A stretch of 32,977 nt of DNA from Alphaproteobacteria bacterium (GTDB lineage: Bacteria; Pseudomonadota; Alphaproteobacteria; CAAHEQ01; UBA3637). Below the pieces are notes generated by a model that was not told the origin of the DNA, did no database searches, and worked only from the letters and a program-made list of their open reading frames with translations. The stretch covers positions 1 through 32,977 of the forward strand of contig JAGCFA010000060.1 in the NCBI GenBank assembly GCA_017650375.1, written 5' to 3'. Shown here piece after piece: positions 1,232 to 26,370 of this stretch. A program made the translations under genes and the position numbers. Numbering within the stretch: the first letter of the stretch is position 1; each line of letters starts with the position of its first letter.

Positions 1232-1232
1232 T
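1204..1232 (+). promoter_or_regulatory. Putative sigma70 promoter for the pilin-like gene, inside the 3' end of the HNH gene
   Basis: TTGTAA-17 bp-TATAAT with extended -10 TG; AGGAGG RBS at about 1252-1257 before ATG 1263. Confidence 0.6.
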
Positions 1233-1262
1233 AGTGGGAATTTTTCCATAAAGGAGGATTAT

Positions 1263-4200
1263 ATGAGCAAAAAACATTCTGAATCCGGTCGTAGCTTATT
1301 AGAAATTGTCGTTGTTTTAGGCATCGTTGCTTTATTGATGATTATCACTTCATTGGGATATAGTTTCATTTCATTAAAGTATCGTGAAAAAGAATCTGTC
1401 AAGCAGGTATCCGAATTGGCGGTGCGTTATAAATTGAATCCCGTTAAACCAAAAGAAGGTAAAAAAAGAATCCCCCTTAAAACAATCTATCCGGAAGCTG
1501 TTTTAACCGAAGCTAGTGAAGCTTTAGTAACACCAGATACAACATCAACACGCGTTTATTTGCAACCATATGAGGAAACATCTGCTTTCAGTATCGTTGT
1601 CAATCAAACTTTACCAGGGACATGTGAAGAGTTATTGGAAAGCGGCGAATACGATATGGTCGTGTTTAAAGAAGGAGTATCCATTGAAGAGGCTTTAACT
1701 ACCCAAGGCGAAACAGAAAAAAACGCTTTCAGTCGGGATTATTTAATGAGCCCTGAAGGCAAGGAATTAATTCAAAAAATATGTGCACAAGAAAAAGAAA
1801 CAAAAAAAGTTACCGGTTTAGGATTGGTCTTTGACAAGCGCTGTCCTGGATTAGGAAAGAGCTTTTGGTACAGAGGTCAATGTTGGAACTGCCCCATTAC
1901 ACAGGTACAAGATATTCATGGTGCTTGTTGTTCTTCCTTGAATGAATGTGGTGTCTGCCGTTGTCCTAATGGTGCTTGTAAAACAGAAACAAAAACTTGT
2001 GTGGAATGTGTTAACGATGCTAATTGTGCCAATAATTCAAAAGGACATAGGTGTGACACAACAACAAACAAATGTGTTTCCTGTCTTGCAGATAGCGATT
2101 GTGCGGAAGGATCTTATTGTACATCCGGTCATACCTGCGTCCAATGTGATACGTTGGACGAAAAAAAACATCTGCTTTGGAATTCCAAAACTGATGAATG
2201 TGAATGTGCTAAACCTTTGTTAGCTCTTGGGCAAGACTGTGAAGAGGAGACAAATTGTTGTGGCACGGGTTTAACATGCCATGAGGGTATTTGTAATGAA
2301 TGTTGGGAACACAAAGGCCCACAACCAAAAGTAGGCGCATGTAATAGTGCTGATTTCCCTATTTGTAAACCAACTGGAAATGGTGCAAATAAATGTGAAA
2401 GATGCCCTCAAACACCAACCGCTATTGGTGACGAATGCTACGAAGTATGTGGAGGTTGTTCTGCAGCTGTCAATTTGACTTGCGATACAACACGAAATCA
2501 ATGTGTTTGCAGTGACAATTTACATTGGAATGGTGTACGTTGCGTCGAATGTACTGAAAATAGCCATTGCCCCACTGGAACAACTTGTAGTGTCACTGGT
2601 TCCTGTGAAGGCTGTACAGCTAATTCTTCCTGCCCCAGTTGCCAGGCTTTAGATCCGACAAAGCCGTATTGGGATGGAACAAAGTGTATCGAATGTTTCG
2701 CAAATGGACCAGAAGGCGGATGTGTCGATCCAACAAAACCACGTTGTAATTTGACAACAAATGTTTGCGAACCTTGTCCGACTACTGCTCCAAATTGGGA
2801 TGGAACAAAGTGTGTTGAATGCGTCAACAACAGTCATTGTCCTGTAGGAAAAACATGTGATATAACAAATTCTTGCAAAGACTGCGCAATCAATTCTTCC
2901 TGCCCCAGTTGTCTGGCTTTAGATCCGACAAAGCCGTATTGGGATGGAACAAAGTGTATCGAATGTTTCGCAAATGGACCAGAAGGCGGATGTGTCGATC
3001 CAACAAAGCCACGTTGTAATTTGACAACAAATGTTTGTGAACCTTGTCCGACTACTGCTCCAAATTGGGATGGAACAAAGTGTGTTGAATGTTCAGAACC
3101 AAGCCATTGCCCTGCGGGTAAAACTTGTAATAGTTCAAATTCTTGTGAAGATTGCGCAATCAATTCTTCCTGCCCCAGTTGTCTGGCCCTGGATCCTGAA
3201 AAACCATATTGGGATGGAACCCAATGTATTGGGTGTTCTGCAAATGGACCAGCCGGTGGTTGTACTGAAGAAAAACCTGTATGTAATAAAGAGACAAAAG
3301 TTTGTGAACCTTGTCCAGCAGAAACACCTAACTGGAACGGATTGCGGTGTTTGGAATGTTTTTCTCACAGTCATTGTGCTGATCGAACAGATGGGCGCGT
3401 AACTTGTGATATCAACAGTCATATGTGTATTGAATGTCCGGATAATGCTTCCGGTGTACCGACAGATCAACGTATTGGTTTAACGGCATGTTATTGTCGT
3501 CCTGGTTATGTCGTCAACAGCATCGGTACAAAATGTGTTGAAAATTGCTTTTCCGATGTTGACTGCGCAGGCCGGACGGATGGAAGCACCTCATGCGATC
3601 TACAAACACATCGTTGTGTAAGCTGTCCAGAAGGATACTTCATGGAAAATGGTTCATGTAAGACCTGTGGAACAGACAGAAATTGCGTTTGTAACCGTTA
3701 TGGTTTATCCCCTTGGACAGCCGGAGCTAGTTGTGGAAAAGGGAAAAGCTTATATGTCACATTCGAAGGATATTTAATCTTGGATAAAGATGTAACAGAA
3801 ATCGGTCAAGGTCAAGGCTGTCGCACGGGAACATTGACTTTGACTTCTGAAGAAACAGGGGAAGTTTTCACAATTCCCGCGAAAGGGTATTCCGATGCAT
3901 ATAAACCATTCAAAGTTAACTTGAAAAAAGGTGTCTATAAAGCCGTCCTTCAGACAAATCATGCAAAAGGGATGGAATTTTGTTATCCATCTTATGATTC
4001 CAATTTGGGATATGCAGCAATGTGTACAGGAAAATACTATAAGGTCTGCCCTAAAGGAACTTTCTTAGATACCGGATCAAATATGTGTGTTAATTGCTTA
4101 AGTGACTATGGCACTGGAGAAGAAGGAGCTTGTGCTAATTTATCAAAACCATGGTGCAATCCGTCCAGCAATTCTTGCGAAGCTTGCTCGGCCAATAAAC

Positions 4201-5006
4201 CTTATTGGAACACAGCACGACGTGAATGCGTGGAATGTATGTCAGATGCTCATTGCGCTAATCGGACAGACGGAAAAACCATTTGCGATACATCTACAAA
4301 CCTTTGTTTCCCCAAAAATAATCCATATCATCTGGGGCAAACGATTTTTGAATCTGAAACACCAAACACATATTATGTGAACCTCTATCCAGGAATCTAT
4401 GACATAGTCATTGTTGGTGCCGGTGGTGGAAACCGTGGTATTCGTGAAAAGCATAATCATAACTCTGGTACGGGTGCTAGCGGTGGTTCTGGGGCTGGTT
4501 TTGTCGGAACAATTACTGTTACTAAAGCTAAAAATAACGTAGCCGTTCATGTTGGAAAAGGTGGAAAATATAAGTTCACTGACCAGTGTTGCGTTGGTGA
4601 AAAAGCAACAGATGGAGAAGCTTCAAGCATTTCTGGAATTATTTCTTGTCCTGGTGGAATGGCAGGAAGTGTTCAGAGCGACTATAATCAAGCTACTGCT
4701 GGTACGGGCGGATCTGCATGTACTATTTCAGGCAAGGTTGTTTCAAGCTTAATAAAAAAAGCAGGATCAACAGGTCATACTGGTTCTGCTAAGAAATCAG
4801 GTAATCTGACGGCTGTTCCTGGAACGACATCCGTTGTCAGCAACTTTGTTCCCAATAACAATGGGGGTACTCCAGGATTCTGTGCCGGATGGTGGATGAA
4901 TGGGATGTATGAAGCGGGTCAACACAGTTGTGGTAGTGGTTTAACGAATACTTCCATGACAGATAGTCCTTCTGGATACGTTAAGATTATCTATAAAGGT
5001 AATTAG
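1263..5006 (+). CDS. Giant Cys-rich type IV pilin-like (prepilin-type N-terminus) surface protein, 1247 aa, with C-terminal Gly-rich domain
   Basis: Start moved to ATG 1263 (strong RBS). MSKKHSESG|RSLLEIVVVLGIVALLMII is a class III-like signal with E5 and a hydrophobic helix; long CxxC/CxEC repeat stalk; C-terminal YDIVIVGAGGG...GGSGAG...SGYVKIIY. Confidence 0.85.
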   Translation: MSKKHSESGRSLLEIVVVLGIVALLMIITSLGYSFISLKYREKESVKQVSELAVRYKLNPVKPKEGKKRIPLKTIYPEAVLTEASEALVTPDTTSTRVYLQPYEETSAFSIVVNQTLPGTCEELLESGEYDMVVFKEGVSIEEALTTQGETEKNAFSRDYLMSPEGKELIQKICAQEKETKKVTGLGLVFDKRCPGLGKSFWYRGQCWNCPITQVQDIHGACCSSLNECGVCRCPNGACKTETKTCVECVNDANCANNSKGHRCDTTTNKCVSCLADSDCAEGSYCTSGHTCVQCDTLDEKKHLLWNSKTDECECAKPLLALGQDCEEETNCCGTGLTCHEGICNECWEHKGPQPKVGACNSADFPICKPTGNGANKCERCPQTPTAIGDECYEVCGGCSAAVNLTCDTTRNQCVCSDNLHWNGVRCVECTENSHCPTGTTCSVTGSCEGCTANSSCPSCQALDPTKPYWDGTKCIECFANGPEGGCVDPTKPRCNLTTNVCEPCPTTAPNWDGTKCVECVNNSHCPVGKTCDITNSCKDCAINSSCPSCLALDPTKPYWDGTKCIECFANGPEGGCVDPTKPRCNLTTNVCEPCPTTAPNWDGTKCVECSEPSHCPAGKTCNSSNSCEDCAINSSCPSCLALDPEKPYWDGTQCIGCSANGPAGGCTEEKPVCNKETKVCEPCPAETPNWNGLRCLECFSHSHCADRTDGRVTCDINSHMCIECPDNASGVPTDQRIGLTACYCRPGYVVNSIGTKCVENCFSDVDCAGRTDGSTSCDLQTHRCVSCPEGYFMENGSCKTCGTDRNCVCNRYGLSPWTAGASCGKGKSLYVTFEGYLILDKDVTEIGQGQGCRTGTLTLTSEETGEVFTIPAKGYSDAYKPFKVNLKKGVYKAVLQTNHAKGMEFCYPSYDSNLGYAAMCTGKYYKVCPKGTFLDTGSNMCVNCLSDYGTGEEGACANLSKPWCNPSSNSCEACSANKPYWNTARRECVECMSDAHCANRTDGKTICDTSTNLCFPKNNPYHLGQTIFESETPNTYYVNLYPGIYDIVIVGAGGGNRGIREKHNHNSGTGASGGSGAGFVGTITVTKAKNNVAVHVGKGGKYKFTDQCCVGEKATDGEASSISGIISCPGGMAGSVQSDYNQATAGTGGSACTISGKVVSSLIKKAGSTGHTGSAKKSGNLTAVPGTTSVVSNFVPNNNGGTPGFCAGWWMNGMYEAGQHSCGSGLTNTSMTDSPSGYVKIIYKGN
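2523..3380 (+). repeat. Intragenic tandem repeat, 270-bp (90-aa) period, about 3 copies
   Basis: aattcttcctgccccagtt recurs at 2622, 2892 and 3162; 2622-2821 and 2892-3091 differ at only 4 of 200 positions by manual comparison. Confidence 0.95.
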
Positions 5007-12662: not shown

Positions 12663-13997
12663 TTAAATCCTGCGTTTAGAGAAGTAATTTTCCCGAGCTT
12701 TTATATCTCGACCACAAAAACGAACACCTTCTTGGCAAAGGCCACGCGCCATACAAGGCGGGGCAAAACGCGCTAAAATATCAGGATTTTTTAATTTTTC
12801 CTTTAAGCCTGAACGCAACCCGCATGCCAAATGATAAATTTCTTCCTGCGCACACCAGCAAGTCCGTTTGGCCTGTTCGTGCACCAAGGCATTTAAATCA
12901 CCAACCTTTTGATACTTTACCATCGCACCATAGGGGGCGATTAAAGTTGCCACATCCCGCCCGTATTCCTTTGCCAAATCTAACCATTCTTGCATATAGG
13001 CTTGGGCGGTTTCGGAAAGCCCCGCTTCAGCAACCAAAGGCGGCACATAAAAAGCCCCTGTAAAGGCCGGAGCTGAACGTTTAAGGGAACGGTGGCGTTG
13101 ATCTTGTCCAAAGGTCGCACAAGAACACACCACTTCACTTTGAATTAAAAACTGGCTGTTAGTCATAGTCGTTGGCGCAAAAGGAAGCGTATCTAAACTG
13201 TCGGTCAAAGGTGTGGTGCTAACAGCATTTTCATCCCCTATCACATTCAAGACTTTAGCGGTGGGTTCCAAAACAACCGAAGCCTGTCCCGATAAAATTT
13301 CAGGTGCCCACTTCGTCGTTTGCTTTTCAGAATTAAACATATAGCTTAAATCGGGATTTTCAGTGATGACTAAATCCGCCATTTGTTTGGTAGCTAAACG
13401 CATTTCAGGGCTCCACGCCACACGATAAAGTGCCGTCAATGCCGACAGATTCACTGTAAAATCCAGAGCTGTCGGCGCAAGCTGAGAAATAAACACACGC
13501 AGTTGTTCTTGGGCAATTTTGGGCGCATTTTGAGTGATATATTTTCCATTCACAAAGGGGCGTTCTTGTTTGATTTTTTCCGTAGCTAATTCGGTTAAGC
13601 AAGAAATGTTTTCTTGATAAATTCTGACTCCCTTTTCCACCCAAGACATGATTTTATCAGCTGGGGCTGAGGGATAAAAAGAAAGCAGACTGCTACGTAG
13701 GGCGTTGAAATCCGGTTCGTTATACATTTTGGAATAGCGCCCTGACCGTTGGTCTGAGTTATAATGGGGGCTAGCTAAATGCAGGCCAAAAGCCACCGCC
13801 GATACAGGGATATCTTCCACAAAAAAGGTAAAATAATTGTGTTGTAAAGTCGTGTGATGGCCAGGATCAAACAGACGTGTCTTTACATCAATCGGTTGAT
13901 TAATTGTTTCTGGGTTGATAGAATAACATACGCGGGCGGCATGGCTGGCCAGTGCGGTGACCGATAAATCTGTTTTGGCTTTCAGGGCAACTTTCAT
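12663..13997 (-). CDS. thyX: FAD-dependent thymidylate synthase ThyX, tandem two-domain form
   Basis: AARVCYS, GHHTTLQH and QRSGRY in domain 1; QDQRHRS and RTCWCAQEEI in domain 2; 444 aa. Confidence 0.85.
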   Translation of the reverse strand: MKVALKAKTDLSVTALASHAARVCYSINPETINQPIDVKTRLFDPGHHTTLQHNYFTFFVEDIPVSAVAFGLHLASPHYNSDQRSGRYSKMYNEPDFNALRSSLLSFYPSAPADKIMSWVEKGVRIYQENISCLTELATEKIKQERPFVNGKYITQNAPKIAQEQLRVFISQLAPTALDFTVNLSALTALYRVAWSPEMRLATKQMADLVITENPDLSYMFNSEKQTTKWAPEILSGQASVVLEPTAKVLNVIGDENAVSTTPLTDSLDTLPFAPTTMTNSQFLIQSEVVCSCATFGQDQRHRSLKRSAPAFTGAFYVPPLVAEAGLSETAQAYMQEWLDLAKEYGRDVATLIAPYGAMVKYQKVGDLNALVHEQAKRTCWCAQEEIYHLACGLRSGLKEKLKNPDILARFAPPCMARGLCQEGVRFCGRDIKARENYFSKRRI

Positions 13998-14935
13998 AAT
14001 AACTCCTTTTTAATCTTTTGGGCAATTTCTTGAGCCGGATTTAAGCAATCTTTCGGCGGATGAGGCCATCCCCCAACCGGAACAGCATAACCTTGGCTGT
14101 ATAAGGCCTGATGAAAACGGGCGTGTTTTTCCCCTACCATTTCCTTAGGAGCAAAAATAACAACAGGTACCCCTACCCCCGCACATTCTGAACACATACT
14201 CATAGAATCCCCTGTTACAACCAACATATCTGCCATAGACAAAAGCCCAAAATAAGGATTCTCACTTTGATCGCCAAAGCAATAAAAAAACTTAGGCTCT
14301 GGAAGTTCTTTTTCCAAAAATGTCACAATTTCACTGGGTGTTCTGCGCGAAGTCGTTACCAATAAACTGGCCGGTTTTAAAGCCCGAATTGCATCAACTA
14401 ATTGTTGAGCATGTTTCAAAGTAAATGATTTATCCTTGGTGGCGCCTCCCACTAAAACACTGACACGCGGTGTGGGGTACTTCTTAAAAATTGGAGCCCA
14501 ATGTTTTTTTTCACGGGCTAATTTTTCAGGCGTCACACGATGCGGTGTTCCTAGAACTTGCATCACATTTGATGCTTTTCCAGAATAATTATCGTGGGTT
14601 GGTAAAATCAACAAATCAGCCTTTTTTTCTTCTAATTTCCCGGGGTTCATTAGTTGCACAATTTTTGTTTTTCCTCCTGATAATTTTTTGATGGCCAATG
14701 CTACAGGGAAACTGCGCCGGCCGGCACTTAAAACCACGTCAGGATAAGGGGCGGACAATCCAGCCTTTGATTCTTCTGTAATACCGATAAAGCTGGCCCC
14801 ACGCAAAAAGTTCGGCAAGCGCACCCAAGCATTATAGCGAATATCTTTGCGTTCATAGGGTTCCCCTAATGCTTCTACAATTCCAAGCAATTGATTGACA
14901 TTCCCTGCACGGTCATCTGCTAAGATCCAAATCAT
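13994..14935 (-). CDS. ELM1 (mitochondrial fission ELM1 / DUF1022)-family putative nucleoside-diphosphate sugar epimerase or glycosyltransferase
   Basis: IWILADDRAGNVNQ, SAGRRS, PTHD, VLVGG, VTTSRRTP, NPYFGLL, VTGDSMSMCSE. Confidence 0.88.
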   Translation of the reverse strand: MIWILADDRAGNVNQLLGIVEALGEPYERKDIRYNAWVRLPNFLRGASFIGITEESKAGLSAPYPDVVLSAGRRSFPVALAIKKLSGGKTKIVQLMNPGKLEEKKADLLILPTHDNYSGKASNVMQVLGTPHRVTPEKLAREKKHWAPIFKKYPTPRVSVLVGGATKDKSFTLKHAQQLVDAIRALKPASLLVTTSRRTPSEIVTFLEKELPEPKFFYCFGDQSENPYFGLLSMADMLVVTGDSMSMCSECAGVGVPVVIFAPKEMVGEKHARFHQALYSQGYAVPVGGWPHPPKDCLNPAQEIAQKIKKELL

Positions 14936-15318
14936 TTGATTCCTTTCACTGTTACTTCATTTGTCGCAGCTTTTTTCTTAAGTTGTTCAATCCCTTTTAA
15001 AACAATTCTATCTGATTCAATAGAGCTGATTTCTTTTGCACAAACAGACGTTTGAAAATACTGGCAAGGACGTGCAATATAAGCAACATTTCCCCCTTTA
15101 TCTTTTACAGCTTGTTCACGAACCGTTGCAGAGGGAGGAACCTCATATCCTTCCACATACACAGTTAAGGGTTCACCCTGCTTTGAAATACGATACCAAC
15201 CAGAAAGTACGTAAGGAGGCACTACCAATGTTTGAAAACGAAAATCAGCCTTTTCCAACGGATTACGATAGGTGCATCCGGATAAAAATAATATTAAAAA
15301 CAAAATCCCTTTTTTCAT
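14932..15318 (-). CDS. Lipoprotein resembling the N-terminal half of an alpha/beta-hydrolase family
   Basis: MKKGILFLILFLSGC lipobox; LTVYVEG and NVAYIARPCQY motifs; stop overlaps the ELM1 start (ATGA). Confidence 0.7.
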   Translation of the reverse strand: MKKGILFLILFLSGCTYRNPLEKADFRFQTLVVPPYVLSGWYRISKQGEPLTVYVEGYEVPPSATVREQAVKDKGGNVAYIARPCQYFQTSVCAKEISSIESDRIVLKGIEQLKKKAATNEVTVKGIK

Positions 15319-15324
15319 ATCTTC

Positions 15325-15353
15325 ACTATACCAAACGAAAGAAGAATTGACAA
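15325..15353 (-). promoter_or_regulatory. Putative sigma70 promoter giving a leaderless transcript for the lipoprotein-ELM1-thyX operon
   Basis: Minus strand reads TTGTCA-17 bp-TATAGT-6 bp-ATG, with no SD. Confidence 0.55.
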
Positions 15354-15399
15354 GTAAAAAATGAAATCCTTTTTTAAAAAAAGAAAGGGGGTGAGAAAT

Positions 15400-15471
15400 A
15401 TGGCTGGAAATAAAGATTGTGGGTGCGGTTGTGGCACCAAAAAAGGCGGTTCCAAAAAGGGAGCCAAATAA
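15400..15471 (+). CDS. Small 23-aa Cys/Gly/Lys-rich peptide MAGNKDCGCGCGTKKGGSKKGAK
   Basis: Strong SD (AAGGGGGTGA) just upstream, TTGACA at 15347, hairpin terminator 5 bp after TAA; fills an otherwise empty intergenic gap; below the ORF-track cutoff. Confidence 0.7.
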   Translation: MAGNKDCGCGCGTKKGGSKKGAK

Positions 15472-15476
15472 CTCAT

Positions 15477-15503
15477 ATGCCACCGTTTATTCGGTGGCAT
15501 TTT
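15477..15503 (+). terminator. Intrinsic terminator after the small peptide gene (may also serve convergent chpT)
   Basis: atgccaccg-tttatt-cggtggcat followed by ttt. Confidence 0.75.
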
Positions 15504-16038
15504 AAATAATTTCAAGTTGAGCAGAAGTGGCTTTCAATGCCATTTTTAATTTTTTATTCTGATTTTTCAACTGTTCCATCAACCAACCCGCTTCTACGAT
15601 TTCAGGTGTCATTTCTACTTTTTTATTTTCTAATAAAGCCATAAATTCAGGACGCGCTGTAATTTCCGGACCTTTTAAAGTCATTTTATTATCCTTAAAG
15701 CTCAGTGTTCCGCCTTGAGCCAGCAAAATAATGCCTACTGCCACCAAAGAAAGATGCAAGCGATTTTCAACACTTCCTTCAAGTGTAATTTTTTGTCCCC
15801 ATGTTTTCAAGTGTTCCGTAATAATTGAAGCATTAATTTCTTTTGTTTCTGCCCCAAACAGTGCCCGATAAAAACGCAAACGCGCCATCAGCATTAAACT
15901 GTTTTGTTTAAGCATAACTGCTGCTTCCCCTGAAAAAGACGGATCAATTTCCATCAGTTCCGCTGTTGAAGCTACTGCCCCTATTCCTCCGGCCAAATCA
16001 TGGCTGATTCTGCCTGTAATCGCTTCAGTTAGTGTCAT
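15502..16038 (-). CDS. chpT: Histidine phosphotransferase ChpT-like
   Basis: ITGRISHDLAGGIGAV...ELM and ARLRFYRALFGA match the ChpT SRxCHDLxxPVGA...ARLxFxRxAFGA pattern; short degenerate C-terminal domain. Confidence 0.78.
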   Translation of the reverse strand: MTLTEAITGRISHDLAGGIGAVASTAELMEIDPSFSGEAAVMLKQNSLMLMARLRFYRALFGAETKEINASIITEHLKTWGQKITLEGSVENRLHLSLVAVGIILLAQGGTLSFKDNKMTLKGPEITARPEFMALLENKKVEMTPEIVEAGWLMEQLKNQNKKLKMALKATSAQLEII

Positions 16039-16913
16039 TTCTTTTTCCTTTTATATTCTTTTAAAATTTGTTTCCCGATTTCATCTGGGGAATCAATCCA
16101 GCATGCGTTTGCTTTTTTAAACAAGGTCTTTTTTTCCTGAATAACATCCGAAAACAGAACGGACTTCATGCCTAACAACGGATGTTTATCAGAACGCGCC
16201 AATGTTTTTCCCGGAATATAAACAAACATTTTTTTAGGATGATTCTTTTGATAAAAAGAAGCTAATTCTTGTTCCAAAGTCCCATGAACTTGCCCTATCA
16301 CTAAAATAGCCTTTGTTGCTGTATCTGCATACAAGCATTCAATCACAGGAATAAAAGAGGCTCCGATCAAATGGTCTGCCCCTAATGAAACACATTGAGA
16401 GACCCCTAATCCTGCCTCGGAGAGTTGTTGTACAGCCTCAAACATTAAAGAAGAGGAACGTCCCACAATCGCAATAGAACCAGCAGAAAATAAGTGCGTC
16501 GGAATGGTTCCTGCAACAGCATGGCCAACATTTAAAATGCCAGCAGAAGACGGCCCCAATAAAGTTACACCAGCTTGATCAGCAGCCAATTTCATTTTCA
16601 AGGAATCATGCATCGGCACATGTTCTGTAGTACAAATAATTAATGGTATTTTAGCCTTAATTGCTTCTAAAACATCTGATAAGGCTTTTTGAGGTGTAGA
16701 AAAAACAACACTGACCTGTACTTTCTTTGCACGCATTGCCTTTGCAACAGAAGAATATAGCGGAATAGAGCCCAATTTTCCTGTTATTTCCTGACTGACT
16801 CCAGCCACCAAATTTGTCCCATAGCTGAGAGCCAGTTCCGTTTGATAACGCCCCATGGCAGAAGTAATTCCTTGAAAAAGAATTGGTGTTTTTTGATTTG
16901 GAAAGAAAAACAT
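16035..16913 (-). CDS. sucD: Succinyl-CoA synthetase alpha subunit-like, divergent active site
   Basis: QGIT, YGTNLVAGV, ICTTEHVP, LLGP..G, G.SQCVSLGAD; the GHAG and GEIGG motifs are altered; ATG 16913 overlaps the sucC stop (TGATG). Confidence 0.8.
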   Translation of the reverse strand: MFFFPNQKTPILFQGITSAMGRYQTELALSYGTNLVAGVSQEITGKLGSIPLYSSVAKAMRAKKVQVSVVFSTPQKALSDVLEAIKAKIPLIICTTEHVPMHDSLKMKLAADQAGVTLLGPSSAGILNVGHAVAGTIPTHLFSAGSIAIVGRSSSLMFEAVQQLSEAGLGVSQCVSLGADHLIGASFIPVIECLYADTATKAILVIGQVHGTLEQELASFYQKNHPKKMFVYIPGKTLARSDKHPLLGMKSVLFSDVIQEKKTLFKKANACWIDSPDEIGKQILKEYKRKKK

Positions 16914-18052
16914 CAAAGAACTCCTTTCACCTGTTTAACAATTTCAGATGTTGCATCCGAAATTTTATTCATAACAATAAAAGGAGAAATAGAGCGCGTC
17001 AACAAACGGACTCCCTCTGTCGAATCAAGACCCGCCATTCGTACAACAACCGGAATACCCGTTGCAATTTCAGGAGAAGCAGCTAAAGCACCTTCTGCCA
17101 CGGTCTTACAACTGGTTAATCCCCCAAAAATATTGACCAATATACCATCAACATTTGGTTCAGCCAAAGCCAACTTCATCGCTTTTGTAATAGCGTTCGC
17201 TGTGGGTTCTGTCCCTACATCCAACAGACAAGCAACTTGTCCCCCTTTTTGATGAATCAAATCAATCGTTGCCCAACCAAAACCTATACCATTGACCAGA
17301 CAAGCAATGTTACCACACATTTTTGTATACCTGAATGCATTTTTTTTAGCCAAAGCTTCTCTTTCATGGCCCCACTTTATTTCCTGACGCTTAACAATTT
17401 CCGGAAAGCGAAACAATGAATCAGGATCAAATACCAAACGCCCATCCACAACAACCAAGGTCTTATCATTTTGGACAATCGGGTTCAATTCAACAGCCAC
17501 AGCCCCGTAATGAATGAAAAGGCGATATGCTTTTTCTAGAACACTCTCCAAAAGTCGACCAATATGGCGATCATTGATTTTCATACATTTTAAAATTTCT
17601 TTTTTAATAGCAGATGTCAATTTTAATTCGGTCAAAAAGAAGGTGTTTTCCCCTTTATCAGAAACAATGGTCAATGTATAGGTTTGACGGTCAAAATCCA
17701 CCCTAAAAACAAAACGACATAAAGCTTTTTTTTGTACTGCTTGTTCAATATAGACACGCTGAATTGTGGCCGGCACATCCGCAGGAAAACCTTTAACATG
17801 CATTCCTAGAATCTGTTCAGTTAAAGCTAAAACTTCTTCTGAATTTTCAGCTAATCTTTTTTCCAACAACAAATTACGTTTTTTATCCGGTGTATATCCT
17901 AATAATACCTGAGGCTTGACCCAAAAAGGTCCTGACGTCATCTGACAAGCGATATTTTTTGCTTCTTCAGGCGTATAGGCAACACCCCCTAATAAAACGG
18001 GCAAGCCTGCTGTCTTAAAAATCTCTTTAACGTAATATTCATGCAGTTCCAT
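16913..18052 (-). CDS. sucC: Succinyl-CoA synthetase beta subunit-like, divergent active site
   Basis: MELHEY..K, ELNPI, D.R..FD...LFR, GNIACLVNG.G, LDVG, LVNIFGG; the GGRGKAGG loop is absent. Confidence 0.82.
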   Translation of the reverse strand: MELHEYYVKEIFKTAGLPVLLGGVAYTPEEAKNIACQMTSGPFWVKPQVLLGYTPDKKRNLLLEKRLAENSEEVLALTEQILGMHVKGFPADVPATIQRVYIEQAVQKKALCRFVFRVDFDRQTYTLTIVSDKGENTFFLTELKLTSAIKKEILKCMKINDRHIGRLLESVLEKAYRLFIHYGAVAVELNPIVQNDKTLVVVDGRLVFDPDSLFRFPEIVKRQEIKWGHEREALAKKNAFRYTKMCGNIACLVNGIGFGWATIDLIHQKGGQVACLLDVGTEPTANAITKAMKLALAEPNVDGILVNIFGGLTSCKTVAEGALAASPEIATGIPVVVRMAGLDSTEGVRLLTRSISPFIVMNKISDATSEIVKQVKGVL

Positions 18053-18065
18053 TGAATTCCCTTCT

Positions 18066-18968
18066 TTATTTTATTGTATTTGGTCTTTGCCAAGAAGTCA
18101 ATTTCTTTTTTAAATCCTGCCATTTTTCCTTCAAAGTCTTTTGATGTTCTTGATAAATAAGAGGCGTAAAAAAGTTGTTTAACTTTTTATCCAGTTCATC
18201 CATATTAGAAAAAGTATTTACCTTACCATTCTTCACCAATGAGACATCCCCAGTTTCTTCAGAAATTACCAAGCATAGAGCATCCGTATTTTCAGAAAGG
18301 CCAATAGCTGCACGATGTCGTGTCCCGTATCTCCAGCTGAGGTCCGGCGTAGTGGAAAGAGGCAAAATAACACCAGCAGAAACAATTCGTTTACCACGAA
18401 TCAAAACCGCCCCATCATGAAGTGGTGTATTGACAAAAAAGATATTGATTAAAAGTTCTGCTGATAAAACAGCATCTAAGCTGACTCCTCCGGCTAAAAC
18501 CGTATCCATGGGTTCTTGATTTTCAAAAACAATCAGAGCACCTGTTTTGTGAGTACGCCAATAGGAAATGCTTTGCATTAACAGGTTTACCAAATCTTTT
18601 CCTTCTTTCTTGCGTTTTTTATGCGACCAAGTATCCCAGCTGAGATTATTACCAAAACGCGCCATTAAACGACGAAGTTCAGGTTGAAAAATAACCACAA
18701 AGGAAAGCAAAAGCAATAAAATCAAATTCTTCAAAAGCCCACTGAGGATGCGCAAATGGAATAGGGAAAAAATTTCCCCAGTCATCCAAACAATAACCAA
18801 AAAAAACAAAACGCCTTTGACCGTCTTTTCTGCTGGAGAATTCTTAACCAGTTTCACATAAGCAAGCCATAGCAAAAAGACAATAATGCCTGTTTGTAGC
18901 AAAAAGCTGGCCCATGTCAAGCCAGAAACGCCCAATAAAGATTGCAAATATTCGCGTAAAGATTCCAT
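18066..18968 (-). CDS. cdaA: Membrane-bound diadenylate cyclase (CdaA/DacA type)
   Basis: Three N-terminal TM helices, VIFQPELRR, TGALIV, TPLHDGAV (DGA), GTRHRAAIGLSE (RHR), SEETG; start at ATG 18968 with GAGGGG. Confidence 0.93.
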   Translation of the reverse strand: MESLREYLQSLLGVSGLTWASFLLQTGIIVFLLWLAYVKLVKNSPAEKTVKGVLFFLVIVWMTGEIFSLFHLRILSGLLKNLILLLLLSFVVIFQPELRRLMARFGNNLSWDTWSHKKRKKEGKDLVNLLMQSISYWRTHKTGALIVFENQEPMDTVLAGGVSLDAVLSAELLINIFFVNTPLHDGAVLIRGKRIVSAGVILPLSTTPDLSWRYGTRHRAAIGLSENTDALCLVISEETGDVSLVKNGKVNTFSNMDELDKKLNNFFTPLIYQEHQKTLKEKWQDLKKKLTSWQRPNTIK

Positions 18969-18994
18969 CTTCCCCTCTTTCAATTTTCGAATAA

Positions 18995-19023
18995 AGGGTA
19001 GATGAAAGCGCGCTGTTTGTCAA
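18995..19023 (-). promoter_or_regulatory. Putative sigma70 promoter of the cdaA-sucC-sucD-chpT operon
   Basis: Minus strand TTGACA-17 bp-TACCCT. Confidence 0.5.
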
Positions 19024-19040
19024 GCTCTTTTTAAAGTTTT

Positions 19041-19265
19041 TTAAGCAGCTCTTTGCATTTTTTGCCGTTGCATCACAGCCAGCATTTTTTGTTTTGCTTG
19101 ATCGGCTTTTTGTTGGACTTCTTGTGTACGGCGTTGTTCTTCTTCAATTTGACGAGCGCGTTCTTCATAGTAAGCAGCGCGTCGTTCTTCCAACTGACGA
19201 CGTTTTGTGGCTTTTTCCAAAGCTTCACGAGATTGATCAGTTTCAGGTCTTTCATTTTCTTCCAT
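19041..19265 (-). CDS. Hypothetical small coiled-coil protein (E/Q/R/K-rich)
   Basis: 74 aa, AAGGAG RBS, charged helical composition. Confidence 0.7.
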   Translation of the reverse strand: MEENERPETDQSREALEKATKRRQLEERRAAYYEERARQIEEEQRRTQEVQQKADQAKQKMLAVMQRQKMQRAA

Positions 19266-19401
19266 TTGGGACTCCTTTCACTTCACACTTATATTATATC
19301 ACAGATTTAAAATCTGTCAAAAAAAACTTGCAATTTAATTTAAAAAGTGCTTATATAGTTGCCATCAAATAAAGTGTCAACAAAAAAAGAAAGGAAAAAA
19401 A

Positions 19402-20409
19402 ATGACATTAAAAGTAGCCATCAATGGCTTTGGCCGTATTGGTCGTTTGGTTTATCGTGCTTGGTTGGAATCCGGTCGTAAGGACTTGGACATCGTCGCC
19501 ATCAATGATTTGGGCGATGCTGCTGCCAATGCTTATTTATTAAAATATGACTCTGTCCATAAACGCTTGGACATGGACATTCGTGCCGAAGGCGAATATT
19601 TAATCGCTGGCGACAAAAAATCCAAAGTGATTGCTCAACGTGATCCCACACAATTGCCGTGGAAAGAATTAGGCATTGATATTGTGTTTGAATGCACTGG
19701 TATCTTTACCTCCAAAGAAAAAGCTTCCGTGCATTTGGCCGCCGGTGCAAAGCGCGTGTTGGTTTCTGCCCCAAGTGAAGGCGCCGACAAGACAATCGTC
19801 TATGGCGTGAACCAAAACACATTAACAAAAGAAGATTTGGTTGTATCCAATGCTTCCTGCACTACCAACTGCTTGGCCCCTGTGGTCTATGTGTTGCAAA
19901 AAGCTTTCGGCATTAAGCAAGGCTTTATGACAACCATCCACAGCTACACCAATGACCAAAAGATTTTGGATCAATTACATAAGGATTTGTATCGCGCTCG
20001 CGCTGCCGCTATGAGCATGATTCCCACAAAGACCGGTGCTGCTAAAGCTATCGGTTTAGTGATGCCTGAATTGGCTGGCAAATTAGACGGCGTGTCCATC
20101 CGTGTACCGACACCCGATGTTTCTTTGGTGGATGCCAACTTGATTATGGAAAAAGAAGTCACGGTGGATGAAGTGAATGCCGCTATGAAAGCCGCCGCTG
20201 AAGGTGAATTGAAAGGCGTGTTGGGCTACAATGCCGAAAAATTAGTCAGCATTGACTTTACACACGATTCACACTCTTCCACCTTTGATGCCAATGGCAC
20301 CAAGGTCATGGGTGGCACACAATTGCGCGTGATGAGCTGGTACGACAACGAATGGGGTTTCTCCAACCGTATGTTAGATACAGCCGTTGCGATGGGCAAA
20401 TTGTTGTAA
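19402..20409 (+). CDS. gap: Glyceraldehyde-3-phosphate dehydrogenase, type I
   Basis: VAINGFGRIGR, SNASCTTNCLAP, WYDNEWGFS. Confidence 0.99.
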   Translation: MTLKVAINGFGRIGRLVYRAWLESGRKDLDIVAINDLGDAAANAYLLKYDSVHKRLDMDIRAEGEYLIAGDKKSKVIAQRDPTQLPWKELGIDIVFECTGIFTSKEKASVHLAAGAKRVLVSAPSEGADKTIVYGVNQNTLTKEDLVVSNASCTTNCLAPVVYVLQKAFGIKQGFMTTIHSYTNDQKILDQLHKDLYRARAAAMSMIPTKTGAAKAIGLVMPELAGKLDGVSIRVPTPDVSLVDANLIMEKEVTVDEVNAAMKAAAEGELKGVLGYNAEKLVSIDFTHDSHSSTFDANGTKVMGGTQLRVMSWYDNEWGFSNRMLDTAVAMGKLL

Positions 20410-21816: not shown

Positions 21817-22857
21817 ATGAGTCGTTGTTTTTCAATAAAAGGTCGTAAAGTCGGGTTAGATTATGCCCCATTAGTAGTCGCCGAAATAGGCATTAATCAT
21901 AATGGATCTTTGCAAGAAGCTTTTAAATTAGTTGATGCGGCAAAAGAGGCTGGGGCAGAAATTGTTAAACACCAAACCCATATTCCAGAAGCCGAAATGA
22001 GTTCTTTGGCAAAAACCACAATCCCAGGGAATTCCCCCTATTCTATTTGGGATATTATGGTCAGATGTGCCCTTTCCGAAAAAGACGAATTTGCATTGAA
22101 AGAATATACAGAAAGTAAAGGAATGATCTTTATTTCAACCCCGTTTTCTTTTGCTGCTATCGACAGATTAGAAAAGATGGATGTACCAGCTTATAAAATT
22201 GGCTCTGGAGAAATGAATAATTATGAATTTGTGCGGTGCATCGCTGAAAAACGGAAACCCATTATTTTATCAACAGGTATGAACAATATGGAGGCTGTTA
22301 AAAAAGCTGTGGCCTGCATTCAAGAATATCATAATGATTTCGCTATCTTACATACAACAAACCTGTATCCAACAAAACCAGAACAAATACGTTTAGGGGC
22401 TTTGGAAGAAATCCGACGTGAATTCCCAGAGGCGATTATCGGATTATCCGATCACAGTTTGAATAATTTAGCTTGCTTAGCTGCAACTGCATTAGGAGCT
22501 TCGATACTGGAGCGCCATTTTACAGACACAAAAGAACGTGTCGGAGAAGATATTATTTGTTCTATGACAACCCAAGAATGTCATGATTTAATTCGGGATT
22601 CAGCCGAAATTGCTAAAATGCGTGGAGGAACTAAGGAGGCTTTAAAAGAAGAAGAGGTCACTATTCAATTTGCTTTTGGAACCATTGTAGCAACAAAAGA
22701 AATTCCGGCAGGTAAAAAGTTGGAACGATCAGATTTAACAACAAAACGCCCAGGTATTAGAGGCATTCGTGCAGAAGAACTTCCTAATCTTATCGGGAAA
22801 AAAGTCAAACACACTATTGCAGCAGATGAGCATTTGATGCCGGAGGATTTAGCCTGA
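21817..22857 (+). CDS. neuB: N-acetylneuraminate synthase with C-terminal SAF/antifreeze-like domain
   Basis: AEIGINHNGSL, KHQTH, STPFS, KIGSGE, LSTGM, GLSDH, LERHFT, KRPG; resembles the Neisseria SiaC / Campylobacter NeuB1 type. Confidence 0.95.
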   Translation: MSRCFSIKGRKVGLDYAPLVVAEIGINHNGSLQEAFKLVDAAKEAGAEIVKHQTHIPEAEMSSLAKTTIPGNSPYSIWDIMVRCALSEKDEFALKEYTESKGMIFISTPFSFAAIDRLEKMDVPAYKIGSGEMNNYEFVRCIAEKRKPIILSTGMNNMEAVKKAVACIQEYHNDFAILHTTNLYPTKPEQIRLGALEEIRREFPEAIIGLSDHSLNNLACLAATALGASILERHFTDTKERVGEDIICSMTTQECHDLIRDSAEIAKMRGGTKEALKEEEVTIQFAFGTIVATKEIPAGKKLERSDLTTKRPGIRGIRAEELPNLIGKKVKHTIAADEHLMPEDLA

Positions 22858-25085
22858 TGAATATTTCTTTTTTATCCGGAACACGAGCTGATTACAGTAA
22901 AATTAAACCTTATATTAGTTATCTGTTAGAAAAGCAAAAGGATAAAAAGATTTACCTTTTTGTGACGGGGATGCACATGTTGAAAAAATATGGGCAAACT
23001 TGCCAAGAAGTGGAAAAAGATTTTAAAAGTACTTGCCAAATTATTTTAGACAAAGATTTTTCGGAACAAAACACATCTCAAGAAATGGCCCATATCATCG
23101 CCTGTTATGATCAATATTTACGGAAAGATCATATTGATTTTGTTTTTGTTCATGGAGATCGTCCGGAAGCTTTGGCTGGTGCTATCGCCGCCAGATTAAA
23201 TAATATCCCTGTTTGTCAAATTGAAGCTGGCGATTTGAGTGGAAGTATTGACGACAGCATCCGCCATTCTATTACAAAATTGGCTCACCGGTTTTTGGTT
23301 TCAGATGAACAAGCCAAACAAATTTTATTACAGATGGGAGAAAATAAAAAAGATATCTTTGTTATCGGGAACAGCAGTTTAGCCAATGATATTCCAGATA
23401 TGGAAGGTATTTTCCAAAAATATGATATTCCTTTCAATAAGTATGCCATTCTGATTTATCATCCGGTAACGACACTTCCTGCGGAAAAAATTCAAACAGA
23501 AATACACCTTTTGATGAAAAAGCTGGTAGAAAGTAATTTAAATTATATCGTTATTATGCCAAATAATGATTTAAATCACAAAATCATTTTAAATGAATAC
23601 CGTCAGCTTGAAGGAAACAAAAACTTTCGTTTCTTTACCTCTTTGCCTTTAGATGTTTTTATAAATCTATTAAAAAAAGCTCAGTTTTTAATAGGAAACA
23701 GTTCTTGTGGTATTAAAGAAGCTCCCTATTATCAAGTCCCCACAATTGACATTGGTGTAAGGCAACAAAATCGCTATCAAAATTTAAACACTAGGTATTT
23801 TACTCATCTTGGTTCTTTGAAAAAACTCAATAAATTAATTAATAAAATTTGTTCAAAAAAAGAAACTAAAAAAAAGACGGACTTTAAAAAGTTATTTGTA
23901 AAGAAATTAGATCGGTGTTTTTCCAACTCTTTTTGGCATCCAAATATTCAAAAGGGGTCTTCTTTTTTATTGAAAAAGCCCAGAATTAACAGAATCTTTC
24001 GTACATTGCTTTCTTTGGGTGGTTTTTTGGCATTTTTTGCCTTGTCATCCTATTTGTTTTTCAGGATAGTATATACCCCCCCAATTGCCCATATATATAT
24101 CGATTTAGCATCTGTTCCATCTTTATTCCAAATGACAGATGCTTTACAACAACCCTCTGAAGAACCAAAACTGTTCATTTGGAAAAGATTTCCCGCTTTA
24201 AAAGCTGATGATAGGATACTTCAATCTATGAACGCAATTATGGTTGATAGCAAATTTTTGGGTGAAAAGAATTATGAAAAATTTAATACATTGGTTGATA
24301 CAAATTTGATGGAATTTTACGCAAAAAATTTCAACCATCATTTCGTCATTCATCTAAATGCCTATCATGCCTTGAATAAGTCTGGCCATTTTTCCAATAT
24401 TATTCCTACTGAAAAAATCAAGGAAATTCACTTATATGATGATGCTATCGGCAGAAGCCTATGGGATAAAAAAACATATATTTCCTATGCAACTCTTTCC
24501 GGAAATTTAAAAACATATATGCACCTTGCTCAATACGATCCTAAAATATTACCTATAGAAAAAGAAAAGATTATTCCCCTTGATTTTTATCAAGCTGCAG
24601 CAACGTTGTCTGATGATAAAAAAACGATGTTGGCACACCTGACAGGGTTAGATTTGGAAAAAATGAACCAAGCATTCGAACACAGGCCTGTTGCTGTTTT
24701 TTTAGATGACCCTGACTTAAAATGGCAGGCAGCAGAAAAATTTATCAAAGAATTAATTAGAAAACATCCTGAGATAAAAAATTATACATGGCTTTATAAA
24801 AATCATCCACGCGTTTCCAAAAACGGAGAAACTTTAAAACTTCTTTCTAAATATTTTCCGAAAATAATCGTCATTTCAAATGGAATTCCTTTGGAAACAT
24901 TAATTATGGTTAAATTGGTTCCTGACTTCATTGCCGGATACGGATCAAGTGTTTTTTACTCTTTCCCAAAAGAAAAAATATTGGGATATATTCATCGAAT
25001 AAAAAATGAATATTACCAAACTTCATTAATAAATTTAGGCATTTTAACACCCGAATTAATTTTTGACGATCAAACAGGAGATTGA
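22857..25085 (+). CDS. neuC: Fusion: hydrolysing UDP-GlcNAc 2-epimerase (NeuC) + TM helix + GT80-like sialyltransferase
   Basis: aa 1-~366: GTRADY, VTGMH, HGDRPEALAGA, SGSIDDSIRHSITKLAH, YHPVT, GNSSCGIKEAP. TM at about 24003-24075. C-terminal YIDLASVPSLFQ, LYDDA, YKNHP, IPLE and AGYGSSVFYSFPKEKI resemble GT80 YxDxASLPxLxQ, YDDG, KGHP and GxxSS motifs. Confidence 0.85.
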   Translation: MNISFLSGTRADYSKIKPYISYLLEKQKDKKIYLFVTGMHMLKKYGQTCQEVEKDFKSTCQIILDKDFSEQNTSQEMAHIIACYDQYLRKDHIDFVFVHGDRPEALAGAIAARLNNIPVCQIEAGDLSGSIDDSIRHSITKLAHRFLVSDEQAKQILLQMGENKKDIFVIGNSSLANDIPDMEGIFQKYDIPFNKYAILIYHPVTTLPAEKIQTEIHLLMKKLVESNLNYIVIMPNNDLNHKIILNEYRQLEGNKNFRFFTSLPLDVFINLLKKAQFLIGNSSCGIKEAPYYQVPTIDIGVRQQNRYQNLNTRYFTHLGSLKKLNKLINKICSKKETKKKTDFKKLFVKKLDRCFSNSFWHPNIQKGSSFLLKKPRINRIFRTLLSLGGFLAFFALSSYLFFRIVYTPPIAHIYIDLASVPSLFQMTDALQQPSEEPKLFIWKRFPALKADDRILQSMNAIMVDSKFLGEKNYEKFNTLVDTNLMEFYAKNFNHHFVIHLNAYHALNKSGHFSNIIPTEKIKEIHLYDDAIGRSLWDKKTYISYATLSGNLKTYMHLAQYDPKILPIEKEKIIPLDFYQAAATLSDDKKTMLAHLTGLDLEKMNQAFEHRPVAVFLDDPDLKWQAAEKFIKELIRKHPEIKNYTWLYKNHPRVSKNGETLKLLSKYFPKIIVISNGIPLETLIMVKLVPDFIAGYGSSVFYSFPKEKILGYIHRIKNEYYQTSLINLGILTPELIFDDQTGD

Positions 25086-25089
25086 GATT

Positions 25090-26370
25090 ATGAATAATAG
25101 ATTAAAAAGATCTTTAGCATATGTTTTTTGGGGAGGTGTTTCTACTTCGGCGGTAGATACTTTGGTAGTCGGTCCCACTTTATTTGCTTATGCTGCTTTT
25201 TTCGGTGCTGGTGATATTGCTTTTGGTATATTAGGGGCTGTCCCTTATTTTGGAAATTTAGCCCATTTATTTTCTGCATGGTTAATTGAGCATGGTTTTT
25301 CCATTCGGAAAACAGCTTTTTATACGGCTTTTATTTCCAGATTTTTCCTATTAATTGCTGCTTTATTGGCTTTTAAACCTAATATGCCAGGCGCATTAGA
25401 AATTTTAATTTTGATTTTAACTCTTAATTATTTAATTGGTTGTATTTCTGGGGGTGTTTGGTTACCCTGGATGAAAACACTTATCCCTGCGCGGATTATG
25501 GGACGTTTCTTTTCTTTTCGTTTTAAATATATGATGGTGGCCAAAGTTATTTGTTTTTGGTTTAGCGCTCTTTTATTAAAATACGGTGTTTCCTTTGTTC
25601 CGCAAGATAAAGAAATTTATATCTATGCTTTCTTATTCATTATTGCTTTTATTATTGGTTTATTCAGTGCTTGGACTTTATCACAAGTGGAAGATAAAAA
25701 ACAAGTTTCCGTTTCCAATTCACTTTCCTTTATTCAAAAAGTGAAGACATGCTTGATGAACAAACCATTCAGAAATCTTTTGTTCACATTAAGTTTTACA
25801 AATTTCACTGTTGCCTTTATAACACCCTTTGTGACTGTTTTTATGTTAAAATATTTGGAAATTCCAATGTCCACCATTTTAATTTTCACTTTAATTATGC
25901 AGTTGACTTATACACTCGTCATTAAAAAGTTGGGGAAAATTGCAGATAAAGAAGATACTTTGAAAGTTTTAAAATTATCTGTTCCTTTGCTGTTATTATC
26001 TTTGTTAGGTTTTTTAATCATAAATCAATTCACCTTAGGACTTTATACAACATATGCTGTATTGATAATTGCTCATATTATTTTGGGTATAGCAACTGCC
26101 GGCATCGCTTTAGGAATTAACAATGCTTCCTTGATTTACGTTCCAAAGGAATCTTCAGCTATATATCTTTCTGTAAATTCCGTCGTAAAATCTTTTGCCG
26201 GTGTTGTTGCTTCTATTCTAGCGGGTGTGACTTTATCTTTATGTACACTTTTGGAAACCTCTTTTGCTAATCGTTGGACCGTTTTTTGGAGCATTTCTGT
26301 CTTCATTGCAGTTGTATCCTATTATACAATCATCGTATTTAAATCTTCATTAAAAAAAGGAACAAAATGA
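25090..26370 (+). CDS. MFS transporter
   Basis: About 12 hydrophobic segments in two halves, W.PWM..LIP....GRFFS.R, LGKIADK; start at ATG 25090 with AGGAG. Confidence 0.85.
   Translation: MNNRLKRSLAYVFWGGVSTSAVDTLVVGPTLFAYAAFFGAGDIAFGILGAVPYFGNLAHLFSAWLIEHGFSIRKTAFYTAFISRFFLLIAALLAFKPNMPGALEILILILTLNYLIGCISGGVWLPWMKTLIPARIMGRFFSFRFKYMMVAKVICFWFSALLLKYGVSFVPQDKEIYIYAFLFIIAFIIGLFSAWTLSQVEDKKQVSVSNSLSFIQKVKTCLMNKPFRNLLFTLSFTNFTVAFITPFVTVFMLKYLEIPMSTILIFTLIMQLTYTLVIKKLGKIADKEDTLKVLKLSVPLLLLSLLGFLIINQFTLGLYTTYAVLIIAHIILGIATAGIALGINNASLIYVPKESSAIYLSVNSVVKSFAGVVASILAGVTLSLCTLLETSFANRWTVFWSISVFIAVVSYYTIIVFKSSLKKGTK

Follow-up and report, generated by a model that had tools for sequence, protein, structure and literature searches.

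The catalytic set of succinyl-CoA synthetase (SCS, encoded by sucC and sucD) comprises His246 and Glu208 of the alpha subunit and Glu197 of the beta subunit, and His246, in the alpha GHAGA loop, is the phosphorylatable residue, according to the accessible text of PMC10342173. A His-less domain is known from PatZ, where it binds acetyl-CoA, phosphate (at helix tips) and ATP and is non-catalytic and allosteric, as the available parts of bioRxiv 10.1101/2024.11.12.623305 and PMC8556138 describe it. Here we analyse a 32,977-nucleotide stretch of an alphaproteobacterial genome (the window; contig JAGCFA010000060.1, assembly GCA_017650375.1), which encodes homologues of both SCS subunits, written here as sucC′ and sucD′ (products SucC′ and SucD′, together SucCD′). 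Because the catalytic His and the nucleotide loops are lost and yet both genes are under purifying selection, their products likely form a non-catalytic complex. With slightly more than even confidence, we favour a stand-alone pseudo-ligase that would serve as a metabolic sensor or scaffold, a reading drawn from sequences and comparative analysis. We found no literature report of a natural stand-alone His-less SucCD, in a search that left out most subscription journals.

The initial annotation had described four co-oriented genes joined by a 13-bp gap, a TGATG and an ATGA, and this arrangement is indeed present, with a ribosome-binding site in the gap between cdaA and sucC′. The genes are:

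18066-18968, minus strand: cdaA, diadenylate cyclase, 300 aa, matching TIGR00159 and PF02457, with DGA and RHR motifs intact
16913-18052, minus strand: sucC′, succinyl-CoA synthetase beta-like, 379 aa, with a below-cut-off family match and an SCS-beta fold
16035-16913, minus strand: sucD′, succinyl-CoA synthetase alpha-like, 292 aa, its start ATG lying inside the TGATG
15502-16038, minus strand: chpT, histidine phosphotransferase, 178 aa, with its H-box His13 intact

The window's genome (assembly of 906 kb, 91.6% complete) belongs to an order of one family, 16 genera and 80 genomes, this one included; genera are numbered, with g1 the window's own. Two related records (L070, L071) are labelled as alphaproteobacterial metagenome-assembled genomes of gut origin, and just 2/80 loci in a metagenome scan came from the SucCD′ clade. 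None of our conclusions draws on the unpublished genome G119.

Both subunits fall short of the NCBIfam cut-offs for succinate-CoA ligase (SucC′, 233.1 bits against 370; SucD′, 211.6 bits against 353.2). In SCS alignment numbering, the phospho-His position of the window's SucD′ is a Leu, and the His246 column holds His in 0/77 sucD′ copies of the order versus 15/15 outgroup copies; the order has Leu in 38, Asn in 15, Val in 8 and Phe in 5, and four copies, one of them a fragment, are gapped there. The phosphohistidine role once proposed for SucD′ is not supported, since none of the 77 copies shows a His at that site. We also considered replacement phosphohistidines and rejected them, as His244 of the window lacks conservation and position 98 carries His in 50 copies and Arg in 20. 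Alpha Glu208, which stabilises the His, is Gln in the window and Glu in 17/77 copies, while beta Glu197 (Glu188 in the window) is Glu in 65/77. SucC′ of the window has its GGRG loop replaced and its GGxEIE segment deleted; we take these two to be the nucleotide-site loops of the beta subunit. It retains equivalents of K46, E99, E197, N199 and D213 together with the C-terminal CoA-ligase domain, and SucD′ retains equivalents of S153 and E159. Near-invariant residues across the order are alpha S153 and E159 (76/76 ungapped copies) and beta G265 (75/75), N264 (74/75) and G321 (75/77). Alpha S153, Y158 and E159 and beta N264, G265 and G321 presumably line the phosphate/succinate site in SCS structures.

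The remaining conservation is uneven along the proteins. Measured as identity between genera of the order versus identity among outgroups, the His loop stands at 0.28 versus 0.79 and the ATP-grasp loops at 0.24-0.26 versus 0.50-0.61, the beta CoA-ligase domain at 0.60 versus 0.73, the alpha CoA-ligase and Rossmann domains at 0.49-0.53 versus 0.73, and the first 48 residues of SucC at 0.53 versus 0.59. Judged from these sequences, the putative CoA/phosphate site is much better conserved than the parts for phosphotransfer. AlphaFold2 models gave the SCS-beta fold for SucC′ (predicted local distance difference test score, pLDDT, 89.7; template modelling score, TM, 0.78-0.87) and the SCS-alpha fold for SucD′ (pLDDT 92.3; TM about 0.9), with SCS beta and alpha chains as the best structural matches, and the internal parts modelled with lowest confidence are the former GGRG loop of SucC′ and the former His loop of SucD′. 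The top fold match of SucD′ is an integrative GatB-SucD crosslinking model (PDB 9a6e). Near sucC′D′ in four genera lie genes that are presumably gatC, gatA and gatB, names we assigned from their sequences (L083, L090, L114, L116, L118, L124); this proximity may be ancestral synteny.

Missing catalytic residues, long branches and the lack of a detected substrate source could also mean that sucC′ and sucD′ are relics in decay, preserved by operon structure, an explanation to which we give hardly any credence. Nei-Gojobori estimates over 27 close pairs, kept where dS was 0.05-2 and not independent of one another, gave median dN/dS values of 0.055 for sucC′ (21 pairs), 0.070 for sucD′ (21 pairs), 0.127 for chpT (19 pairs) and 0.06 for cdaA (7 pairs), so both ligase genes, at 0.055-0.07, lie below chpT, which largely refutes decay. 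The sole g3 pair tested was saturated; sucC′ and sucD′ of g3 and g4 are full-length, and full-length open frames occur across 16 genera. The confident model folds and the new lineage-specific invariant residues that have arisen also speak against relics. The initial annotation's view of a ligase repurposed rather than decaying agrees with these values of about 0.06.

The metabolic setting of the pair has changed as well. The product of sucA is the normal supplier of succinyl-CoA, and sucA (PF16870) was found in 0/80 genomes of the order and 0/3 of its sister order, in searches whose controls worked; in the window's genome, tblastn with outgroup queries found none of mdh, sucA, sucB, lpd and sdhA/B. 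That genome encodes a separate 691-aa ADP-forming acetate-CoA ligase-like protein with an intact His loop, which makes SucCD′ unnecessary for that step. Searches for Pta and AckA came back empty in 3/5 genomes tested, the window's included. Both proteins are present in the two basal genomes tested (L162-L165 versus L139:346-2421), whereas the three derived genomes have neither but carry an ADP-forming acetate-CoA ligase-like gene; the acetate pathway has likely switched within the order. NDK is present in 5/5 genomes tested, and no genomic link between ndk and sucC′D′ was found; the accessible text of PMC10342173 reports a mitochondrial SCS-NDK complex.

This setting bears on whether SucCD′ might still be an enzyme, performing the first half-reaction only (acyl-CoA and phosphate to acyl-phosphate), thioester hydrolysis or CoA transfer. 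The CoA/phosphate site as the best-kept part, the new His or Arg at alpha position 98 in 70/76 copies and the missing Pta and AckA of three genomes would all suit such an activity. PDB 7msr is an E105Q mutant holding succinyl-phosphate. However, alpha Glu97, which we take to be the catalytic base of SCS, is replaced by Thr, Asn or Gln in 22/76 copies, and no source of succinyl-CoA was found. The need for such an activity is also doubtful, given Pta and AckA in both basal genomes tested and the intact ADP-forming acetate-CoA ligase-like protein of the window's genome. We consider a residual half-enzyme rather improbable.

In the non-catalytic reading that we prefer, SucC′ and SucD′ would still pair, and the pair would bind CoA or acyl-CoA together with phosphate at the old site, without turnover; binding at that site is proposed from the pattern of conservation and by analogy with PatZ. 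The ligand-bound state would then be passed to a partner protein, as in PatZ. The leading candidate for this partner is the CtrA/DivK network, at about one chance in four, and a cell-cycle target is plausible. Several observations weigh against this reading. The CoA-site equivalents G17, Q19, P40, N122 and C123 are lost, alpha Glu97 is kept in only 54/76 copies, and the conserved residues could be structural instead of ligand-binding. Furthermore, cell-cycle genes repeatedly lie close by (chpT next to sucD′ in 62/77 genomes, divK before sucC′ in 8/8 g3 genomes, ctrA as the next gene after chpT in G053 and G069), which may point to a link tighter than that to an inherited neighbour.

Loss of the catalytic parts extends beyond the order. 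None of the 120 best database matches has the canonical His motif, while of the 26 new loci from 301 genomes of the class that score next best, 25 keep the His (the exception is G117) and 24 have GGxxIE (the exceptions are G117 and G026). The sister order comprises three genomes: in G117 and G378 the loop has the same His-to-Asn change as in the basal genera, and G292 keeps the His with a shortened and eroded SucC. In a FastTree SucCD tree, a kind of tree open to long-branch attraction, the 24 members sampled from the two orders fall into one clade with support of 1.0. Within a third order, G026 (L057:5193-8614) has a SucCD that keeps the His and has lost beta GGRG and GGxEIE; it shares indels with the clade of catalytically dead pairs, and an upstream DHH-like gene and a small lipoprotein gene with the basal genera, its ctrA lies 3.5 kb from sucD, and sucA was not found in this 81% complete genome. 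The G026 pair may be an intermediate state, a view that the tree does not support; since G026 does not group with the clade of catalytically dead pairs, we make no claim about an ancestral state.

A frequent neighbour of the pair is chpT. The order sucC′-sucD′-chpT is neither unique to the window's genome nor scattered in its relatives, being kept in 14/16 genera; chpT overlaps or abuts sucD′ in 62/77 genomes. The window's ChpT matches its family weakly, scoring 27 bits against a cut-off of 225 (E 2.7e-6) with the NCBIfam ChpT models (Caulobacter and Brucella/Rhizobium equivalogs) and E 2e-4 against PDB ChpT 4qpj, and its H-box His is invariant in 61/61 aligned orthologs. Elsewhere in this genome are encoded a CtrA-like protein (best NCBIfam match CtrA, 312 bits, cut-off 350) and a partial CckA-like protein (best match CckA, 381 bits, cut-off 1000). 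Neither divK nor any further cell-cycle kinase was found in the window's genome, 91.6% complete as it is, so CckA has no known regulator there.

One could see SucCD′ as a dedicated cell-cycle regulator that binds ChpT or a receiver (CtrA, DivK) and tunes phosphorylation or activity by the level of CoA, acyl-CoA or phosphate. Beyond the chpT junction, the CckA without a known regulator and the nearness of ctrA (immediately behind chpT in G053 and G069, at 3.5 kb from sucD in G026), this is helped by Caulobacter citrate synthase, which controls CtrA independently of catalysis according to the available part of PMC7083601. Junctions of this kind, however, are commonly retained. Abutting co-oriented gene pairs of the window's genome were looked up in partial genomes of distant genera (some 380 kb of G095; some 370 kb of G042 and G041): 58/94 and 38/72 (53-62%) have stayed adjacent there, functionally unrelated pairs among them, and both figures are lower bounds. 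Against this baseline the retention of the sucD′-chpT junction is unremarkable. Thirteen genomes of basal genera show sucC′-sucD′-chpT-cheY-cheR, an arrangement in which chpT resembles the leading gene of a leftover chemotaxis operon, as expected if a rearrangement created the junction. In four g2 genomes chpT has moved away from sucD′.

ChpT is also not an obligatory partner, because SucCD′ is retained in g3, g4 and the sister order, where chpT is not detectable. PF10090 missed even the window's own ChpT, so the absence was tested with a profile built from 61 orthologs. A single-protein query found no chpT in 10/10 g3 genomes or in g4, and the profile found none in 9/9 g3/g4 genomes, although it did detect the distant ChpT of outgroup G040; in the sister order 0/3 genomes gave a hit, in a search without a positive control. 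An ortholog of cckA was missing in 4/4 g3/g4 genomes tested (control G053, E 5e-150). Genera g3 and g4 thus appear to have dropped cckA and chpT. They have kept ctrA (L218-L227), but its Asp51 is lost in 4/10 genomes, whereas 9/9 other genomes have Asp; the residue is Glu in G022, G056 and G059 and Ser in G023, and the DNA-binding domain is conserved. This decay of the CtrA receiver backs the loss of chpT and cckA, and CtrA of g3 and g4 is possibly phosphorylation-independent. CtrA D51E has been used as an active allele in Caulobacter, according to the accessible text of PMC5189948.

A different cell-cycle gene adjoins the pair in g3: in 8/8 genomes with upstream sequence, divK precedes sucC′ at a distance of -4 to +19 bp, and its product matches PDB DivK at E 1e-39 (L052, L083, L084, L087, L088, L089, L093, L136). 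Genus g3 thus keeps divK coupled to sucC′ though the usual downstream relay of CckA and ChpT was not found there. It is notable that the lineage which has lost the first cell-cycle gene has gained a second one in this operon, and this favours a dedicated regulator; it is also a single event that we noticed post hoc, and neither chpT nor divK stands beside sucC′D′ in g4 or the sister order. All told, we regard such a regulator as unlikely, though worth keeping in view. In our preferred reading, chpT is likely a long-standing, inherited but dispensable neighbour of the pair. Chance operon accretion, which the initial annotation offered as its alternative, fits chpT only in part; it fits cdaA well.

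The window's CdaA passes its family threshold, with 206.5 bits against the TIGR00159 cut-off of 188.8, and has a match to PF02457 and DGA and RHR motifs invariant in 12/12 copies. Hydrophobic stretches can be seen in its sequence, and the match to PF19293 as an N-terminal transmembrane domain scores 20.4 bits, under the cut-off of 23.8. Diadenylate cyclase (DAC) domains occur in 18/80 genomes, 12 in g1, five in g3 and one in g2. They were found in 0/16 outgroup genomes of the same class, so cdaA is unusual here, and the list of cyclic di-AMP (c-di-AMP) producers in the accessible part of a review (PMC10118264) has no Alphaproteobacteria. In g1, each of the 12 copies is found 11-54 bp upstream of sucC′, and these 12 genomes form one clade on the SucCD tree (likewise from FastTree), the only subclade in which the linkage is seen, so the cdaA-sucC′ junction is one event. 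Seven other g1 genomes have dnaE before sucC′. The GC content at third codon positions of cdaA (0.349) is within the range of the genome (0.326, standard deviation 0.059), so cdaA is not a recent arrival; its donor was not identified, and the next-closest proteins have 41-47% identity.

The initial annotation had tied CdaA, the ligase pair and ChpT into one c-di-AMP/phosphohistidine signalling module. The tight co-orientation in 12/12 cdaA-bearing g1 genomes, the purifying selection on cdaA and the lack of DAC genes in the 16 outgroup genomes would agree with this, but the c-di-AMP link is not supported. In 62/80 genomes, most of them with sucC′D′-chpT, cdaA was not found, the junction is a single event, and the closely related CdaA copies of g3, which group with those of g1 (100/100 against more distant proteins), lie in five unrelated neighbourhoods (5/5 checked). 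With SucD′ devoid of a phospho-His, we judge such a module very improbable: the four genes do not behave as one module, and cdaA is likely a late addition or passenger in the unit. Its neighbours in g1 are gapA or a 74-aa open reading frame (ORF) on one side and sucC′ on the other, with no cdaR or glmM; the cdaA-cdaR-glmM operon is typical of Firmicutes and not universal. TrkA-type RCK_C proteins are a usual class of c-di-AMP target, and they occur in 4/5 genomes tested, with and without cdaA, though none was found in the window's. No c-di-AMP phosphodiesterase was identified: PF01368 matched a single RecJ-sized protein, of about 600 aa, in each of the 5/5 genomes tested.

Putative expression signals surround the four genes. 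The single TTGACA promoter claimed for them is present as a motif, but there are two such sites, with an extra 74-codon ORF between them, and a hairpin closes the other end:

19293-19320, minus strand: sigma-70-type promoter TTGACA-16-TATAAT, 12/12 consensus match
19041-19265, minus strand: 74-aa (74-codon) ORF, charged and helical-looking, with no family match
19018-19023, minus strand: second TTGACA, directly before cdaA, with a weak -10 TACCCT
15477-15500, no strand assigned: 9-bp hairpin between the chpT stop and a convergent small ORF

The perfect promoter (19320-19293) stands back to back with the gapA promoter region, and its TTGAC is kept in 12/12 aligned cdaA-clade genomes. The 74-aa ORF is present in five of these 12 (G000, G006, G012, G013, G018), the other seven being without it, and is conserved with its ribosome-binding site in G006, G012, G013 and G018; it is the probable first gene of the unit in its subclade, and the unit probably starts further upstream than cdaA, at the promoter before this ORF. 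The second TTGACA (19023-19018), probably the site meant originally, is retained in 5/5 genomes of that subclade, and the two sites flanking the ORF look duplicated. We take TTAA-N7-TTAA to be the CtrA box motif, and none was found in window positions 14801-19500. The closing hairpin exists as claimed and is likely a terminator (0/200 shuffles fold as well, z -4.45), although a terminator scan did not list it. It is shared with a 23-codon ORF converging on chpT (15400-15471, plus strand), which has a strong ribosome-binding site and a CGCGCG and is Lys/Gly-rich; this pattern was found in none of the relatives' loci scanned.

Other parts of the window and genome hold features of separate interest. 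A low-GC block after tRNA-Arg (21817-26370), with NeuB, an epimerase-sialyltransferase fusion and an MFS transporter, is a sialic-acid-type surface sugar island. The 1289-aa ORF at 1137-5006 has no Pfam match, and related N-termini recur across loci of the order. At 12663-13997 lies a ThyX-like protein whose 444 aa are roughly double the usual length and include two Thy1 stretches. In the same genome (G000:C65:2229-8967), with orthologs in genus g22, a phage-like block of what we take to be capsid-, tail- and terminase-like genes keeps its order between distant genera and is possibly a domesticated gene-transfer-agent-like element.

Little that serves no purpose survives in genomes of about 1 Mb; even so, in at least two orders both broken SCS subunits have outlasted the loss of the substrate source. 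Any non-canonical function of SucCD would be isolated here, while it is masked wherever the enzyme is active. A bolder form of this idea, for which we see perhaps a one-in-five prospect, is that these uncultured gut bacteria dropped the Krebs cycle and kept SCS solely as a metabolite sensor of the cell cycle, which would bind CoA or acyl-CoA together with phosphate and act on the CtrA network through ChpT in most genera, or through DivK where CckA and ChpT were lost. If true, active SucCD in model Alphaproteobacteria would have an unrecognised second, non-catalytic job. The genera with and without ChpT, CckA and CdaA are natural controls for biochemistry. More immediately, automatic labels of 'succinate-CoA ligase' (P0029, P0054, P0120) would wrongly credit these gut bacteria with substrate-level phosphorylation.

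Among the closest known counterparts of SucCD′ is active SCS (EC 6.2.1.5; PDB 1SCU, 2SCU, 1JKJ, 3UFX, 2FP4, 7MSR), with which it shares two subunits, the sucC-sucD order, length, predicted folds (TM 0.8-0.9), most parts of the CoA-ligase domains and beta E197; it differs in having no alpha His246, little of Glu208, neither beta GGRG nor GGxEIE, no adjacent mdh, sucA or sucB and scores under the NCBIfam cut-offs, and judged by these features the pair is not an active SCS. The CckA-ChpT-CtrA phosphorelay is represented here by a ChpT with an invariant H-box His and by encoded CckA-like and CtrA-like proteins, but this ChpT is short (178 aa) and far under the NCBIfam cut-offs, and divK was not found in the window's genome. 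CdaA shares DGA/RHR, a seemingly hydrophobic N-terminus and an above-cut-off score with its family (TIGR00159), and stands apart in its unusual host class, its presence in 18/80 genomes at varied locations and its lack of cdaR/glmM neighbours. Caulobacter CitA is likewise a Krebs-cycle protein of an alphaproteobacterium acting independently of catalysis, but, in the available text of PMC7083601, it is an active enzyme in an intact cycle with an experimentally shown effect on CtrA, whereas SucCD′ is linked to the cell cycle by gene neighbourhood only. The regulatory domains of PatZ-type (type I/II GNAT) enzymes are likewise His-less members of the same superfamily that have kept the fold. They are ACD-like and fused to an output domain, whereas SucC′ and SucD′, at 379 and 292 aa, are unfused, without a GNAT match, and so are not GNAT regulatory domains; they are SCS-derived products of two stand-alone genes, with no known output.

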